From the IMG/VR virus record IMGVR_UViG_3300043571_000425: a stretch of DNA of 64,000 bases. One strand, given 5' to 3'. The notes under the pieces are model-generated. The model had not been told where the DNA came from. It saw nothing but the letters and a program-made list of their open reading frames with translations, and did no database searches. Position 1 is the stretch's first letter, and the number at the start of each line of letters is the position of its first letter. This DNA is from a virus. The translations under genes were made by a program, and so were the position numbers. This document shows, piece by piece, positions 3,048 to 56,424 of the stretch.

Positions 3048-3267
3048 AATTTTATTTGTTAGGTGTACGCCATTAACTATAGCAGACGGGTTGTCATGCG
3101 AATGAGGAAATATCCAAGAATCCCTGTAGAGTCGGTTTTGGAGCAATATCAACTACTGCAACTATCTATTAATTCCCTATGGCTATAGTTAAATGCTTAT
3201 GCTAAAATTAAAACACCTCCCCAAATGCACTCCGGGAAGGTGTTTCGTTTACTTGTAAAAACTTGAA

Positions 3268-3354
3268 TTATGAATATCCTAGCATCCCCTGTGGATAGCG
3301 TGGGGTAATAATGACTGGTGCTTGAATTACACCCCACAGAATGCCTTTACTCAT
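3268..3354 (-). pseudogene. truncated copy (28 codons) of the 1692-1949 gene
   Basis: MSKGILWGVIQAPVIITPRYPQGMLGYS* compares with MSKGILWGVIQSPLIITPRYSQGSL... (85 aa) at 1949. The ATGAGTAA overlap with the upstream stop is the same. Confidence 0.45.
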
Positions 3355-25616: not shown

Positions 25617-25637
25617 TCCAAATTAGAATCCATTTAA

Positions 25638-25710
25638 CCGCAGGGGGAGGAATCGAACATCCTTTTTCTCAGGTCATGTTAGAGTGTTTTACCATTTAAA
25701 CTACCCCGCG
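25638..25710 (-). tRNA. tRNA-like gene with non-canonical anticodon arm (isotype undetermined)
   Basis: 73 nt that fit standard numbering. The acceptor stem has 7 bp (one G-U). U8, the D-arm GTTT/AAAC with G18G19, T54-T55-C56 and G53-C61 are present. The anticodon stem has only 3 bp, with the loop UAACAUGACCU. Confidence 0.45.
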
Positions 25711-25820
25711 AAAACGCCAACCTAAGTTGCTCGACCAGCGAGTTGTTCAACTGTATTATGGCGTAAAAACATAATAGCACAGATTTAGTGCAATGTTTCT
25801 GAACTACCGCGAAAACCTTT

Positions 25821-26019: not shown

Positions 26020-27096
26020 ATGAAATGGGATCTGGAATCTGTTAACGGAAGGCTGAAGGCTGGGAGGATTGGCGTAAAGATTTATCAACGTGGCGACACG
26101 CTCTCACTCCGTGCCACACTACCACCAAAGCCCGGATCACAAAAAACCGCGCCATACCAACAGTATTTGGCATTGGGAATTTACGCCAATGTAGCAGGAC
26201 TACAACGGGCTGAGGCTGAAGCCAAAATCGTAGGGGGATTGTTGGTAACTGGACAATTTGATTGGGGGCGATATTTGGAGTCCGAACCGTCGAACGTGGG
26301 GACGTGCGGTTATTGGATTGAGAAATTTAAAGTTGAATATTTTGCGGCCAACGGAAACGAACCAACCAAACAACAAACATGGAAAGAACATTATCAAAAA
26401 TGTTTTGACCGGCTACCCCATGATGAACCCCTAACCCGTGAAATTTTAATTGCTACTGCTATTCAGACAGAAGCTAACACATGGACCAGGCGAACAGTGT
26501 GCCAAAAGTTTGAGCAATTGGCCAAATTAGCGGACGTGGCGTGTGACCTGAAAAAATACCAAGGCAATTACAGCAGTAACAACCAAGTCATCAAACAACT
26601 GCCGACAGAAGAGGAAATTATTGCCAATAGAGAGAAAATCACAAACCCGTCTTGGCTGTGGGTATTTGGGGCGATCGCCACCTACGGATTACGCCCCCAT
26701 GAGGCGTTATTTTGTGAAATTGAGCAAACAGCACCCTATCGGTGCAAAATCTTGGATGGCAAAACCGGATCTAGGCTGGCTTACCCATTACCTACAGAAT
26801 GGGTAGCAGACTGGCGACTATGGGAGATGAATAAGCCAAGCATCAAAACAGATGGCAGAACTTTTAAGGATATTGGCAACGTAATTTACAAAGCAATAAA
26901 ACGATCTGGCGTAACTTTTGCACCCTATGATCTGCGCCACGCTTGGGCTGTTCGTGCAGCACTAAAATATAAAATCCCTACATCTGTGGCGGCGAAGTGG
27001 ATGGGGCATAGTGTAACCGTACACCTAAAAGAATACCAACGGCATATTACTGATGCAGATCATTTAGAAATATTTGAGAAATTCACAAATAGATAA
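26020..27096 (+). CDS. int: tyrosine recombinase / phage integrase
   Basis: 358 aa. The catalytic-domain signatures GLRPHEAL, YDLRHAWAVRAA (H-x-x-R) and GHSV..HLKEYQRH (C-terminal Tyr region) are present. It lies next to tRNA-like sequence. Confidence 0.9.
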   Translation: MKWDLESVNGRLKAGRIGVKIYQRGDTLSLRATLPPKPGSQKTAPYQQYLALGIYANVAGLQRAEAEAKIVGGLLVTGQFDWGRYLESEPSNVGTCGYWIEKFKVEYFAANGNEPTKQQTWKEHYQKCFDRLPHDEPLTREILIATAIQTEANTWTRRTVCQKFEQLAKLADVACDLKKYQGNYSSNNQVIKQLPTEEEIIANREKITNPSWLWVFGAIATYGLRPHEALFCEIEQTAPYRCKILDGKTGSRLAYPLPTEWVADWRLWEMNKPSIKTDGRTFKDIGNVIYKAIKRSGVTFAPYDLRHAWAVRAALKYKIPTSVAAKWMGHSVTVHLKEYQRHITDADHLEIFEKFTNR

Positions 27097-27130
27097 TTGT
27101 ATAATTAGAGACGATGCAAAAAAAAACGAC

Positions 27131-27745
27131 ATGATTGTGGATATCACTCTTTTGCTGGCTAAATGCAAACAATTCCGCACAGAAGCCGAGATTCTAGTGG
27201 TGTGCGATACTGATGAAACATTATTTGAATTAGTAAAAAAACAACATCAATTAATTCAGTCCCTAACTTCACCTGGAGAACGGTGGGAACGGATTGTTTT
27301 AAGATCGAACGAAGGAGGCGAGAAAACCACTCTCTACCCTCCCAAATTCAATCAGCCTATCGCAATCAAACCTATGGTGCATTCTAGCATACTGGTAATT
27401 CCTGAAGCGGAAATTATCAGTGAGATCATGGAATACCCTAACCCCTCATCTTTGGTACGGCTTGAGGATGATAAGGGGATTTTCACCAATTCCCATACTC
27501 AGAAGAGTTCCGGGACTACCCCTAATAATTGGGTAGGAGCAAAAATGTCTAGCTACTGGATACCAGAAGAATTAGAACGGTACAAGCAACTGCTATTAAA
27601 AGAGAAAGAAGTAAGCAACTTTACCTATGCCGCTTACTTTTTTACTGGCGAGACGGCGCAATTTACCGTAGATGCTAAATTGGTAAATTTCAATGGCGAC
27701 CTGTGCCGTTGGGTTCGCGTTGTTGATTGTCAGATAATCTCCTAG
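27131..27745 (+). CDS. hypothetical protein sharing an N-terminal domain with the C-terminus of 46714-47196
   Basis: ILVVCDTDETLFELVKKQHQLIQSLT....RIVLRS..GEKTTLYP compares with VLVSCESDDILFELVKKQHKMICKLT....RIILIS.KGERTTFYP. The ATG at 27131 is preferred, because 27074 overlaps int. Confidence 0.5.
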   Translation: MIVDITLLLAKCKQFRTEAEILVVCDTDETLFELVKKQHQLIQSLTSPGERWERIVLRSNEGGEKTTLYPPKFNQPIAIKPMVHSSILVIPEAEIISEIMEYPNPSSLVRLEDDKGIFTNSHTQKSSGTTPNNWVGAKMSSYWIPEELERYKQLLLKEKEVSNFTYAAYFFTGETAQFTVDAKLVNFNGDLCRWVRVVDCQIIS

Positions 27746-52271: not shown

Positions 52272-53087
52272 ATGACTAATATATCAAATGATGCACAGAA
52301 TATCATCAAGTTTCATCAAGAACTTAAATCATCTTTTGAGGAAACAAATATAGAAGGCGTGAAAGCCAAGTTTTCAATGGCGATGACAGCCCAACACGCC
52401 TTTTTTGCTGAGTTAAGAGAAGATTTAATTCCTGTTCTGTCTAATATATGTGAAGACGAGTGCTTAATCATTGATCTATGGGTGAAAGATGCCCTGGTGT
52501 TTGATGGAGACTACCGTAAATCAAAATTATCTTCTGTTGTGGAGAAAGATAATGTTAATCAATGTCTTAGTAATGCGTTAATTAACATAAAGGGAATGTA
52601 TGCTAATTTGATTCCCGTACTGTTTATTTTTAGGGAGTCTTTTGGGCAGTCGGATTACCTATCTTTTGGTTTTGACTTAATTGAAAAGCCCTTCACATGG
52701 GGCAAGGAAGATAAAAAATCGCCGTCACCTAAAATAGTCAAGCCCAAAGAAAAAGACCTGGAAAAAGAATTATTAGATTGGCTTTTTTCTTATGGGATTC
52801 AAGCCGATAGCCAAGTTAAAACTTCAAAACATCGAACCGATATTTGGATACCGTCAAAATGTTTTCTTGAACTGAAGCGAGACAAGGTAACTGGCGATGA
52901 TGTTTGTCAGGCAATTGATTATTGTGTAGAGTACAAAATGCCTATCATAATAGTCGGAAACAATATCACAGAAATGGCTTGTCGTGGGATAACAGCATTT
53001 AATAAAGCCGTTGACGCTGACTTGATTTGTTTTGTTCAGTGGAGTGCTATCAAGGTATATCTCAAAGGAATGTTTGGGCTAAGATAG
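52272..53087 (+). CDS. protein with C-terminal PD-(D/E)xK nuclease-like domain
   Basis: HRTDIWIPSKCFLELKRDK...QAIDY parallels GKVDLYIPCVNAVIECKKHK...QQLDY in 13338-13760. Confidence 0.5.
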   Translation: MTNISNDAQNIIKFHQELKSSFEETNIEGVKAKFSMAMTAQHAFFAELREDLIPVLSNICEDECLIIDLWVKDALVFDGDYRKSKLSSVVEKDNVNQCLSNALINIKGMYANLIPVLFIFRESFGQSDYLSFGFDLIEKPFTWGKEDKKSPSPKIVKPKEKDLEKELLDWLFSYGIQADSQVKTSKHRTDIWIPSKCFLELKRDKVTGDDVCQAIDYCVEYKMPIIIVGNNITEMACRGITAFNKAVDADLICFVQWSAIKVYLKGMFGLR

Positions 53088-53142: not shown

Positions 53143-53213
53143 ACATGATAATTGTAACACAATTTATAGGTATTTCAAACAGTTGTACTATGGTTTCGAT
53201 AAGCAACGTTAAA

Positions 53214-53284
53214 GCGAGTAGGTAGGATTTGAACCTCCGATCATGGGTTGGACACCCACAGCTTTACCACTCAGCTATACTCGC
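53214..53284 (-). tRNA. tRNA-like gene, anticodon UCC (Gly) if read canonically
   Basis: The acceptor is GCGAGTA/TACTCGC, the D-arm has AGTGGTA, the anticodon arm is GTGGG-TGTCCAA-CCCAT and the T-arm is GGAGG-TTCAAAT-CCTAC. Oddities are G at position 33 and one extra C between the T-stem and the acceptor. Confidence 0.55.
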
Positions 53285-53287
53285 AAT

Positions 53288-54023
53288 CTAATTATATACT
53301 ATTTTCTCACCTTTATACATTGAGAAACCACGTTTTTTAATCTCATCAAACGGGATTATGGGAACTGTTAATTTTTCTCTATAAGTAGGATCTAAAAAAT
53401 AGATATATCTCATTTGGCAGCCGCTTAATAATTCTCCACCATGATCTTGTTGTAATTTCTTCAATGGTGTATTTGGGTTTCCATAGGTGTTTGTTACCCA
53501 ATGGCTAATTGCAGATGTTTTTGTTTGTACGGTAATTCTATGAACCGTATCCCCCCCCCCGCGAGAGGTGTCTTAACTTATCAGGCAATCGCCAAATCAT
53601 ATCAGACTTACTATTTATCCCAGTCAAAATAAATCCAGAAGCCCTATAAATAGTACCGTCTCCACACTGACAAGCATCAGAAAAGCTAAGAACCCATTTT
53701 AGATGCGGCGCGTGTTTTCTTAATAGTTTAAATGCAATTGATAACGCCCTGCTTTCACTATTTCTTGGCAGATTGTCACTAAATGCCATGCGGTTTAATT
53801 CAACAAAATCATTCCATTTTGTATCTTCAACTAACCCGATGACCTTGCTTTTGTCCAGTGGTGAACCGAACTGCATCGCACCTTCAAGACTACCATTGTA
53901 GAAAACACCAATATGTATCCGTGAGTTATTAACAACCTTCCCTGAGTAATGAAGTTTTTTAATAATAGCGTTAGCTTCCTGGCTGGTGATAGGTTTTAGA
54001 ATAATGTTTTTAGCTTTACCCAT
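53288..54023 (-). pseudogene. Mom-like (GNAT-fold) DNA-modification gene interrupted by a frameshift in a G10 tract
   Basis: ORF 53538-54023 has HYSG......IGV...G...G...FG.P ... ELNRMAF....PRNSESRALS ... VLSFSD...GDGTIYRASGF, as in Mom-type proteins. It stops 3 codons after C10 (53551-53560). The +1 frame stays open for 88 more codons to 53288, including RYIYFLDP. Confidence 0.6.
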
Positions 54024-54663
54024 GACTCCCTACAAACATTTCACATATTCTCGCTAATGAATTGCCGTTTGAATTTTGATTCGGACTCTCATCAAATTCT
54101 CCCATCCCCTTCGCCACGCTAATAGCATCTTTCACGGTGGCAACCTGTTCCTCTGTTAACGTAAAATTCATACTTGATAACGTAGCGCGATCGCCAGACG
54201 GAATATCGCCAAGCGCGTCCCCCCATTCTGAATCATCGGGCTTTTCCTCATCCAAAAAACTCAACTCCAGTTCACTAAACCCAGTCAAGTCCAAATCAAA
54301 CCCTTCATCCTGCAAAAACTCAAAATCAATCTTTAACATTTCCGGGTCAAATCCGGTATTCATTGTCAACTTATTATGAGTCAACCGATAGGCGACTTTT
54401 TGGGCTTCAGTCAGTCCCGTTACCTGAATCACTGGAATAGTAGCATCGCCTCGCTTCTTAGCCGCTAAAAGCCGTCCGTGACCCTCTAGTAATTCCCCTT
54501 TCTCGTCAACTGCCACCGGATCTAAAAATGTAAATTCCTCAATGGAGTTTGCTATCTGGTCCACATGGGAATCAGGATGTAATTTGGCGTTGTGTTTATA
54601 CGCCATTAATCTGTCAATATCCCATTCCTCAATCTGACTACGCTTAATCGTCTGTTTGTTCAT
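54016..54663 (-). CDS. ParB-like nuclease domain protein
   Basis: The N-terminal region L..Y.HNAK.HP..HVDQIANSIEEFTFLDPV.VDE.GELLEGHGRLLAAKK.G has the ParB N-domain pattern. An acidic C-terminal region follows. Confidence 0.75.
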   Translation of the reverse strand: MNKQTIKRSQIEEWDIDRLMAYKHNAKLHPDSHVDQIANSIEEFTFLDPVAVDEKGELLEGHGRLLAAKKRGDATIPVIQVTGLTEAQKVAYRLTHNKLTMNTGFDPEMLKIDFEFLQDEGFDLDLTGFSELELSFLDEEKPDDSEWGDALGDIPSGDRATLSSMNFTLTEEQVATVKDAISVAKGMGEFDESPNQNSNGNSLARICEMFVGSHG

Positions 54664-55228
54664 TTGGTTTCTCGCTTGGATCTATTATTTCGTAACCTTC
54701 CCTAGATAGCTTGTCAGCAGCCGCATTAATGTCAATGAAGTATTTAATACCCCTCACCTCATTAATGGCATCTGTTGACCGTTTTAACGCCTGTGACCAT
54801 TGATTAACTTCCGCCGCGTTATGTTGAGCGATCGCCTTCTTCTTTTCCTCACCAACTAACTTTAAATCTTCAGCTAATTGTCGAGCTTTAACTTCAATAA
54901 TTTTAGCAACATAATCCCTCGCTAATTTGTGAACTTTGTAGTTTTCAATAACTATATCTGAGAGTTCATCTGATATTTTCTCAGATGTTTTTTCAATAGT
55001 CTTCTCCTGAATGGTCGTCTTGAGGGTGTCGCGGTACTGTCGCCTCTGATCTAGCCACAATTCTCGTTTTACCCAGCCCTCAACCGTCCCCTTTGACTGT
55101 CCAGATGCGTCCGCAAGTCCCCTAATTCCTATGTCATCATCAGCCTCAACATAGCGGCGGCGACATTGTTCTTTAGTCCAAGGGCGTGGTAATTTCTCCC
55201 ATCTCAATTTAGTAATTCCTATTAGCAA
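54644..55228 (-). CDS. DNA-binding protein, possible terminase small subunit
   Basis: The N-terminal segment IRGLADASGQSKGTVEGWVKRELW is HTH-like and is followed by a coiled coil. The functional call is tentative. Confidence 0.4.
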   Translation of the reverse strand: MLIGITKLRWEKLPRPWTKEQCRRRYVEADDDIGIRGLADASGQSKGTVEGWVKRELWLDQRRQYRDTLKTTIQEKTIEKTSEKISDELSDIVIENYKVHKLARDYVAKIIEVKARQLAEDLKLVGEEKKKAIAQHNAAEVNQWSQALKRSTDAINEVRGIKYFIDINAAADKLSREGYEIIDPSEKPNEQTDD

Positions 55229-55287
55229 CTAACTCAATAATTGCACATTAATAAAAAATCGCCATCTTGTGACAGCGATCGCAATTA

Positions 55288-56424
55288 CTATTTTCCAGGT
55301 TTCGCCGTCGTAGATTTAACCGCCGTCGTCACAGAACAAGCCAATTGTGATTTTGACATCGCCACAGTCAACGCCTCTAACGCCGCTTCGCGTTCCACAG
55401 TAGCAGGGCATTTTTTAGCTATAAAATCTGCTAAATCAGCAAACTTTGCGGTCAGTTGCCATTGCTCAGTTAGTGCCATGTGCCGGGTAATCAATAGATT
55501 TATAGATTTATCAATAACATATTTTTTCCGCCATTTACAAGCGGTTGTGGAGTCTACGCCCAAAAATATCTCACACCACTGCAAAGATTTTCCAAGCTCA
55601 ATTGCTTCAATAACTTTTAGCTTTAATTCAATATCAAAACCGACAGGCGCGGTCGGCTTGGGATTGACCCTAAACCAATATTTACAATCTTTGCAAGAAT
55701 ACCTACCGCCACGCCTAACGGTGTTGTAACTCTGGCATTTAGGACATTTAACACGCCCGTCAGCAATGGCGCGTAACTTTTCCAATCCCTCTTTTTCAAT
55801 TTGGCGGATCTTCCTGGACCCCATGCCATGAAGTCTGGCAAGTTCCCCAATCGGTATTTTATTAATGTAAAGTCCGTTGATAATTGCGGCGTGTATTTCC
55901 GGCAACTGGTTTATCAATGGCGTGATTCTATCCAGTTCCTCCTGTTGTTCATCCGTCAAAGCCTCCGGTAATTCTGAATTATGCTGATTACACGCCGTTG
56001 CACATTCTTTAGCTAAGTCCAATGGAATATCAAGAGATAAAGCAGCTTGTTCATAGGTAACGCCGTGCTTTTGTGCATACCGTTTAATCTTTTGGTGAGT
56101 TTCTTGTAGTGTTCTAGGAACTTTGATCAGCCGCCCCTTGTCACGGATAAATTGCAAGATTGCACCATTAATAAATAGAACCGCAATACTTGATAATTTA
56201 CACTTCTTTTCAGGGTCAAATCTCTCAATTGCCCTAATTAATCCAGTTGCCCCAATTTGGACTAAATCATCATAGGGTAGGTCACAGCAGAAGGTCATTT
56301 TATGAGCAACTTTATGGACTAGTCCCATGTTGTTAATAACAATCTTGTTTCTAATTCTTATATCTTTAGTGGCGTGATAATTGATTAATAATTGAAGATT
56401 GTCTTCATAATTGGTATTTGACAT
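55288..56424 (-). CDS. sigma-70 family sigma factor fused to a Zn-ribbon/HTH (IS1 InsA-like) C-terminal extension
   Basis: Region 2 is DLVQIGATGLIRAIERFDP....LSSIAV..I.GAILQFIRD. Region 4 is IGELARLHGMGSRKIRQIEKEGLEKLR. Then come CPKC....CKDC and ELKLKVIEAIELGKSLQWCEIFLGVDSTTACKW. Confidence 0.85.
   Translation of the reverse strand: MSNTNYEDNLQLLINYHATKDIRIRNKIVINNMGLVHKVAHKMTFCCDLPYDDLVQIGATGLIRAIERFDPEKKCKLSSIAVLFINGAILQFIRDKGRLIKVPRTLQETHQKIKRYAQKHGVTYEQAALSLDIPLDLAKECATACNQHNSELPEALTDEQQEELDRITPLINQLPEIHAAIINGLYINKIPIGELARLHGMGSRKIRQIEKEGLEKLRAIADGRVKCPKCQSYNTVRRGGRYSCKDCKYWFRVNPKPTAPVGFDIELKLKVIEAIELGKSLQWCEIFLGVDSTTACKWRKKYVIDKSINLLITRHMALTEQWQLTAKFADLADFIAKKCPATVEREAALEALTVAMSKSQLACSVTTAVKSTTAKPGK

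Follow-up and report, generated by a model that had tools for sequence, protein, structure and literature searches.

The DNA analysed here is a 64,000-nucleotide (nt) stretch of virus record IMGVR_UViG_3300043571_000425 of IMG/VR (designated as the window), which carries at positions 53288 to 54023 a gene of the Mom family of DNA-modification enzymes that is split by a run of ten G residues. Comparison with related contigs indicates that this run is probably a reversible contingency (phase-variation) switch in mom, and that the switch is in the OFF position in the window. The gene is followed by a gene for a tRNAGly-like RNA that belongs to a family linked to this Mom subfamily, and members of this family may serve as glycine carriers for the modification reaction.

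A poly-G tract splits the mom gene of the window

The split gene consists of the following parts.

53538 to 54023, minus strand: 5′ part of mom, OFF allele, an open reading frame (ORF) of 161 amino acids (aa) in the ORF list, assigned by Pfam Mom and by alignment to phage Mu Mom (PDB 8BV8), carrying R78 and S91
53551 to 53560, minus strand: poly-G tract (G10) encoding R157-G-G, with G9 and G12 in frame and G7, G8, G10 and G11 out of frame
53288 to 53550, minus strand: 3′ part of mom in the G9-joined frame, 86 codons plus TAG, identified by translation, by one Pfam match spanning the junction and by its substitution pattern (dN/dS, the ratio of non-synonymous to synonymous substitution rates)

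The tract reads C10 on the plus strand and G10 on the coding strand. The 161-aa ORF stops three codons past it (…SRGGGYGS*), and the downstream frame is open until the TAG at 53288-53290, which is separated by 3 nt from a tRNA gene (53213-53284, minus strand). The first-pass annotation of this DNA had described a Mom-like gene split by a G10 homopolymer at 53551-53560, a 161-aa ORF ending three codons past the run and a +1 frame that stays open nearly to the tRNA-like gene. The coordinates, the ORF listing and the translation reproduced each of these points, and each of the motifs quoted in that annotation (HYSG, ELNR, PRNSES, GDGTIYRASGF and RYIYFLDP) was found. It had also held that a G9 or G12 tract would restore a protein of about 244 aa, and rebuilding the tract in silico in the window sequence gave 244 aa for G9 and 245 aa for G12. 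The same procedure gave truncated products of 175 aa for G8 and 176 aa for G11.

The assignment to the Mom family was borne out by profile and structure matches of the G9 fusion. The fused 244-aa product matched Pfam Mom (PF25680) in one stretch that crosses the junction, with residues 7-225 covering profile positions 2-200 of 202 (173.7 bits, with the cut-off at 27.1; E = 4.9e-51), so that the frame downstream of the tract is homologous to the C-terminus of the family. The fusion also matched PHROG 1384, 'Mom-like DNA modification protein' (3.4e-48), and the Mu Mom structure 8BV8. A protein search returned a 244-aa protein (P0001) that is 100% identical to the G9 fusion, together with full-length homologues in the thousands, about 245 aa long.

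Mu Mom transfers glycine from Gly-tRNAGly to the N6-adenine of double-stranded DNA; it requires residues R111 and S124 for activity, and deletion of its helix-turn-helix (HTH)-like insertion (residues ~175-209) abolishes activity (Silva et al. 2026, Nat Commun, PMC13219725). Alignment in the 241-aa Mu numbering showed that R111 corresponds to R78 (ELNR) and S124 to S91 (NSES) of the window protein, and the equivalents of R78 and S91 were invariant in 24 homologues. The counterpart of the tract-encoded R157-G-G in the alignment is 'KRGGQ' of Mu Mom, a motif within the HTH-like insertion. The joined frame keeps this insertion and the C-terminal core strand, in which QMRYIYFLD aligns with QYRYIRFLN of Mu. 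The 161-aa product is probably inactive, because it ends inside the essential insertion and lacks the QMRYIYFLD strand. By every sequence test the gene is a member of the Mom family, and its reading frame is not intact in the window genome, where G10 breaks it at 161 aa.

The tract is the sole G or C run of at least seven in the 64-kb window (41% GC), and simple arithmetic gives an expectation of ~0.02 for G10 or C10 runs in a sequence of this kind, indicating that the tract is not a product of chance.

Tract length varies among closely related phages

Related contigs from public metagenome assemblies were fetched by exact protein sequence, and tract lengths were read directly from the contig DNA. 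Four sublineages (A to D), between which the 736-nt gene shows up to 109 substitutions, were compared. The 90%-identity protein cluster contained forms of 244, 161, 175 and 160 aa, and a sister protein cluster contained forms of 176, 175 and 182 aa. With ON standing for a tract length that joins the two parts of the gene and OFF for one that does not, the alleles were as follows.

Lineage A (the window's lineage): G8, G9 and G10
Lineage B: G8 and G9
Lineage C: G10, with one extra base before the tract, so that G8 or G11 would be ON
Lineage D: G7, G8 and G9

ON alleles were found in three lineages. Alleles that are 99-100% identical outside the tract differed in tract length alone, and two of them (contigs L026 with G7 and L132 with G8) showed zero other differences over 726 nt of the gene. 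In pairwise contig alignments of 1.2-3.5 kb at 97.3-99.6% identity, the tract was the sole gap in 11 of 12 pairs; it was also the sole gap between the window and contigs of its lineage at 97.5-98.6% identity. The only further length difference across all haplotypes was the single extra base of lineage C, which abuts the tract, and a G6 run located 664 nt upstream was G6 in every contig covering that site. These alignments imply at least six independent length changes at the tract, against essentially none elsewhere.

Among 80 diverse viral mom loci, a G or C run of at least seven or a frameshift was seen in the window clade only. A scan for the exact pattern found one locus in JGI metagenome contigs and, in IMG/VR, four loci that all have G8.

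The first-pass annotation had left three options open, namely a phase-variable, a frameshifted or a mis-sequenced gene. According to the last of these, the true phage would have G9 and an extra G would have been miscalled in the window contig. Homopolymers are error-prone, the sequencing technology of the window is not stated, and G9 alleles with a 100% identical protein (P0001) do exist. However, G10 was also present in two other assemblies that are 100% identical to the window (Logan SRR27430722, 3.8 kb, and JGI 3300042343, 2.9 kb), and the tract length of each haplotype was reproducible across JGI, ENA/MEGAHIT and Logan assemblies. Furthermore, four lengths were present with no scatter around a single one, and the nearby G6 run was constant. 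An assembly or sequencing error is therefore very unlikely.

The part of mom beyond the tract is under purifying selection

Selection on the 86 post-tract codons was estimated by the Nei-Gojobori method. The result showed that dN/dS of the post-tract frame was 0.02-0.10, the same range as that of the in-frame 5′ part, and that this frame contained zero stop codons in all lineages, including those seen only as OFF. Comparisons between pairs of OFF alleles gave the following counts.

A-G10 versus C-G10: 15 synonymous and 2 non-synonymous changes
C-G10 versus D-G7: 13 synonymous and 4 non-synonymous changes
A-G10 versus A-G8: 7 synonymous and 1 non-synonymous change

Low dN/dS even between OFF alleles indicates that the downstream frame is translated often enough to persist and that the OFF state is transient on an evolutionary scale. 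The tract itself uses minority codons (CGG makes up 13.9% of Arg codons and GGG 21.5% of Gly codons), and it was uninterrupted in all four sublineages, without a synonymous interruption in any of them, despite flanks that differ by up to 15% and have a dS of 0.6-1.0. This pattern suggests that the homopolymer itself is maintained.

These data also bear on the possibility that mom is a decaying pseudogene, in which case the gene would be in the course of being lost and the tract would be a mere site of frameshift accumulation. In its favour, OFF alleles seem no less common than ON alleles, index counts giving ~30 or more contigs for either state. Decay is nevertheless highly improbable, given the lack of post-tract stops in any lineage, the low dN/dS that extends to OFF pairs, the absence of indels elsewhere in the gene across up to 15% divergence, the ON alleles held by three lineages and a tract that is never synonymously interrupted.

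Purifying selection downstream of the tract in OFF alleles would also be accounted for by recoding, that is, if RNA-polymerase slippage or ribosomal frameshifting gave some full-length Mom at every tract length, so that the tract acted as a rheostat and its length variation were near neutral. Long homopolymers, chiefly A and T runs, can provoke transcriptional slippage, and this effect is established. A programmed-frameshift stimulator 3′ of the tract was considered and rejected: this region has no conserved or unusually stable structure (z = -1.08), and the 6-bp hairpin of the window is lost in lineage B. Moreover, G10 and G7 require a +1 shift whereas G8 requires a -1 shift, and no single programmed event fits all of them. 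Recoding as the explanation of the locus is accordingly rather unlikely, and it could co-exist with genetic switching.

Of the three options, phase variation is thus the best supported, with G7-G10 alleles in near-identical genes and purifying selection downstream. The locus shows several features expected of a contingency locus: a repeat within the coding sequence sets the reading frame, ON and OFF forms occur within one lineage, and the part that is out of frame is under selection.

A proposed mechanism of switching

In the proposed mechanism, slipped-strand mispairing during replication would change the tract length inside the essential HTH-like insertion. G9 (or G12) would yield the 244-aa (or 245-aa) enzyme, corresponding to ON, while G10, as in the window, and G7, G8 and G11 would yield truncated products of 160-176 aa in which the C-terminal GNAT strand and part of the insertion are missing, corresponding to OFF. 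By analogy with Mu Mom, the OFF alleles are probably enzymatically null. Phage populations would then hold a heritable and reversible mix of modifying and non-modifying genomes. Active Mom, probably with a ParB-like partner, would modify adenines late in infection and render progeny DNA restriction-resistant; its product on double-stranded DNA adenine would be the restriction-resistant N6-carbamoylmethyladenine, and the linked tRNAGly-like RNA, charged by the host glycyl-tRNA synthetase (GlyRS), would be the likely glycine donor.

Such a mixture may pay if Mom is toxic or costly, or if some hosts attack modified DNA, in which case switching could be selected as bet-hedging against defences on modified DNA. 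Mu mom has been described as a toxic gene under tight control (PMC3378877).

Several points weigh against this reading. The tract lengths are assembly-level data rather than read counts, and a raised switching rate within populations is presumed. Every retrieved haplotype had one tract length over many samples, as illustrated by G8 in 12 contigs of one lineage-A haplotype, and one length per haplotype is as compatible with slow switching or selective sweeps as with fast phase variation, this uniformity being partly forced by the fetching of contigs via the exact protein. Assemblies from different pipelines may share reads, so that they count as independent by assembler and by sample accession. 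The loss of activity of the 161-aa product is extrapolated from the Mu Mom deletion data. Finally, we know of no defence system that targets momylated DNA, and the selective rationale is drawn by analogy.

mom lies in a conserved cassette with a ParB-like gene

Two genes precede mom on the same strand.

54016 to 54663, minus strand: ParB-like (ParB_N-type) gene, matching PHROG 620 (4.6e-45), with ParB_N also upstream in relatives
54644 to 55228, minus strand: 194-aa ORF from the ORF list with no significant family, present in related contigs

The stop of the ParB-like gene overlaps the mom start by 8 nt, suggesting that the two genes are translationally coupled. Of 81 loci of the window's Mom subfamily, 77 have a ParB-like gene directly upstream of mom and in the same orientation, and a role in DNA loading or targeting is a possibility for its product. 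The 194-aa ORF overlaps the ParB-like gene by 20 nt and is probably in the same transcription unit. In gene order, the subfamily has a conserved cassette of ParB-like gene, mom and tRNAGly-like RNA.

Upstream of the cassette and on the same strand is a gene for a phage sigma-70-type factor (55288-56424, minus strand; 378 aa), followed by a terminator-like hairpin at 55257-55280. The factor has a C-terminal extension with CxxC…CxxC (CPKCQ…CKDCK) that is zinc-ribbon-like.

The tRNAGly-like gene of the window

The third member of the cassette in the window is the following gene.

53213 to 53284, minus strand: tRNAGly(UCC)-like gene, identified by ARAGORN and by Rfam tRNA (39.2 bits), conserved in lineages A-D

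As Mu Mom uses Gly-tRNAGly, a tRNAGly(UCC) gene adjacent to mom was worth following. ARAGORN called it Gly-UCC, and its cloverleaf was recognised by the Rfam model RF00005 with a score above the cut-off of 29 bits. The bacterial GlyRS determinants are G1:C72, C2:G71, C35, C36 and U73 (PMC10464925). Every one of them is present in the window tRNA, which also has G3:C70; CCA is not encoded. The RNA departs from a canonical tRNA in having G33, where U33 is near-universal, and a bulged A on the 3′ strand of the T-stem, between positions 63 and 64. It was kept in all four lineages at a constant distance from the mom stop, and its few substitutions keep pairing. A frameshift-suppressor tRNA with an 8-nt anticodon loop reading GGGG was also considered for this gene and rejected, because the loop of the window tRNA has 7 nt (UGUCCAA).

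A family of tRNAGly-like RNAs follows mom

To see the window gene in its family, 79 other IMG/VR mom loci, with 48-59% protein identity, were searched with ARAGORN. This returned 11 tRNAs, nine of which lay directly after mom and were of Gly type (anticodon UCC in seven, ACC in one and the four-base 'cacc' in one). A covariance model was then built from eight mom-adjacent tRNAGly-like genes, whose structure is 98% paired with compensatory changes in 13 of 21 pairs. With default filters the model matched at the mom 3′ end, on mom's strand, in 70 of 80 viral loci, and switching the filters off raised this number to 77-78. Beyond these, the hits reported in 467 kb comprised three matches close to the threshold (E 0.1-0.5) and a small number of tRNAs or tRNA-like sequences at other places in the loci. 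The element also followed mom in about 52 of 80 genome loci of the same Mom subfamily, and it occurred in prophage and metagenome-assembled genome contigs of many phyla. Rfam 15 gave zero matches for 13 loci with reduced elements, and the element was absent in five distant Mom clades (Mu, JD024, pAEv1818, Alsa_2 and Riggi).

In 63 aligned mom-adjacent elements, which were fitted to the model and so carry a bias toward its features, G1, C2, G71, C72, U73, C35 and C36, that is, the bacterial GlyRS determinants, were invariant, and the bulged A of the T-stem was present in all 63. Position 34 was free (A in 29, U in 27, C in 4 and G in 1), U33 was present in 12 of the 63, position 55 was G in 45, and the D arm was often absent. 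In this large alignment 96.9% of cells were paired and 19 of 21 pairs showed compensatory changes. CCA, which lies outside the model and hence offers independent support, directly followed U73 in 54 of 70 elements. As a control, true tRNAs picked up elsewhere had neither the bulge nor U73.

The mom ORF lacks a stop ahead of the element in about 42 of 61 loci, where it ends 6-79 nt beyond the element, in at least two phases (for instance L077 3292-3436, L053 1144-1259 and L081 3183-3292). ORFs running through the element account for database entries in which 'Mom' has 260-300 aa and a tail like GGASPTRPL. The window clade differs from these read-through relatives in that TAG precedes the tRNA. 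A conserved Mom peptide tail was considered as the nature of the 3′ element and rejected, since the ORF crosses it in at least two phases, its stems covary and the stop precedes it in some clades. One may speculate that excision of the RNA by tRNA-processing enzymes would leave a non-stop mom mRNA and thereby provide regulatory feedback on the enzyme.

Confidence is high that the RNA family is genuine and that its link to this Mom subfamily is specific. Whether its members are Mom's glycine donor is, on the sequence features described here, close to an even question. Charging by host GlyRS is proposed because all GlyRS determinants are invariant and a 3′ CCA is usually encoded, and avoidance of EF-Tu and the ribosome might be achieved through the bulge that every T-stem carries, the lack of U33, the G at position 55 and a D arm that is frequently lost. 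We therefore put forward, as a tentative reading with slightly less than even weight, that these RNAs are a widespread phage-encoded family of private, non-proteogenic glycine carriers for momylation, charged by host GlyRS and kept off EF-Tu and the ribosome, to which the window clade would add a heritable poly-G switch. If so, they would represent a new class of non-translational tRNA use. That most members of a large Mom subfamily have a dedicated tRNAGly-like gene beside mom suggests a way in which phages supply and insulate the co-substrate. The acceptor end, together with the bulged A that never varies, points to the features by which Mom would recognise the tRNA.

A literature search found no paper on mom-linked tRNAGly-like elements, and the family appears to be undescribed. 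Carriers in culture include Lachnospiraceae bacterium CE91-St56 and, in prophage regions, Gallibacterium anatis DSM 16844 and Limnohabitans sp. MMS-10A-192. A further cultured system in which the RNA can be studied is Psychrobacter phage vB_PmaS_Y8A (L120, OQ059336), which carries two tandem unannotated reduced copies (3162-3226 and 3234-3299), located between a mom-like coding sequence annotated as hypothetical and the small terminase gene.

Comparison with known systems

The window protein and Mu Mom share the Pfam family, the catalytic Arg and Ser, the RGG-bearing HTH-like insertion and the C-terminal Q-x-RYI-x-FL strand, and presumably also the transfer of glycine from Gly-tRNAGly to N6-adenine. 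However, they are only ~37% identical, over the N-terminal two thirds. The surroundings of the gene differ as well. Mu regulates mom via Dam/OxyR, C and Com, and Fis also takes part in the control of Mu mom (PMC3378877). In contrast, the window locus has no com-like gene; its mom overlaps a ParB-like gene, contains a poly-G switch and is linked to a tRNAGly-like gene, an RNA that Mu itself lacks.

The closest parallel to the proposed switch is the A9 repeat in agt of phage T2, a phage DNA-modification gene that has been shown experimentally to be a contingency locus, where TgvAB and McrBC impose a trade-off (Gomez, Barrick & Waters 2025 preprint, PMC12633550). In both cases a phage DNA-modification gene would be toggled by ±1 slippage of a mononucleotide repeat, with mixed progeny and bet-hedging. 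The T2 system involves A9, a glucosyltransferase and a lytic T-even phage, and its switch was demonstrated by experiment, whereas the present case involves G7-G10, a Mom gene and an uncultured phage, and its switch is deduced from allele polymorphism and selection signatures. If correct, the present reading would provide natural-population evidence of phages toggling anti-restriction DNA hypermodification by repeat slippage, an idea for which laboratory proof, in T2 agt, is recent. A Mom gene switched by poly-G, backed by a natural allele series and selection signatures, would be a new variation on contingency loci. Virions of one phage would then differ in DNA momylation, which bears on host range, on studies of restriction and defence, and on annotation pipelines in which genes of this sort are dropped as pseudogenes.

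Bacterial phase-variable restriction-modification (mod) genes switch ON and OFF by repeat slippage, and poly-G tracts reportedly occur in Campylobacter phage receptor-binding genes, in work attributed to Sørensen et al. in Cell Rep in 2021. These systems resemble the window locus in the slippage of a homopolymer or short repeat and in the reversible ON/OFF control of a phage-host conflict gene. They differ from it in that they concern cellular methyltransferases or phage tail genes, whereas here a phage anti-restriction hypermodification enzyme would be switched.

For the RNA, a parallel is proposed with the non-proteogenic tRNAGly on which FmhB, FemA and FemB of Staphylococcus aureus rely (Rietmeyer et al. 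2020, PMC7826273). The S. aureus RNAs are charged by GlyRS, have deviant D and T arms, bind EF-Tu and the ribosome poorly, and act outside translation as glycine donors for a GNAT-type transferase. They are chromosomal and serve cell-wall synthesis, whereas the mom-linked RNAs are phage-encoded, lie directly after or inside the enzyme ORF, are often much reduced (no D arm, G55), have an invariant bulged A and are putative donors for Mom.

Other features of the window phage

The gene content of the 64-kb window, which includes genes for a central tail fibre J homologue, a portal protein, a large terminase, a DnaB-like helicase, a sigma-70 factor and a dCTP deaminase, is that of a siphovirus-like phage. 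Megablast of the mom locus against INPHARED phages and Escherichia coli genomes gave zero matches, so the phage has no close cultured relative in those sets. A scan of GTDB genomes with a single window-clade protein found nothing, and the contigs related to the mom locus are all of metagenome origin.

The window phage is probably temperate, given an integrase-like ORF (26020-27096, plus strand; PHROG 1, 8e-07) that adjoins a second tRNA (25637-25711, minus strand), with which it probably forms an integration module. This tRNA is 75 nt long, short for a class II tRNA, and was called Ser(UGA) by ARAGORN. An A9 run at 27118-27126, the sole other long homopolymer in the window, lies inside an ORF (27074-27745, plus strand) located right after the integrase-like gene.

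The cargo carried between the tRNAGly-like gene and the gene for the large terminase differs among near-identical phages, so that this slot resembles a variable accessory island. In the window it holds a 271-aa ORF on the opposite strand without a family match (52272-53087, plus strand), and in relatives it holds KilA-N or Bro-N/BstA_C genes (2862-3542 in L017/L018 and 2749-3459 in L007).

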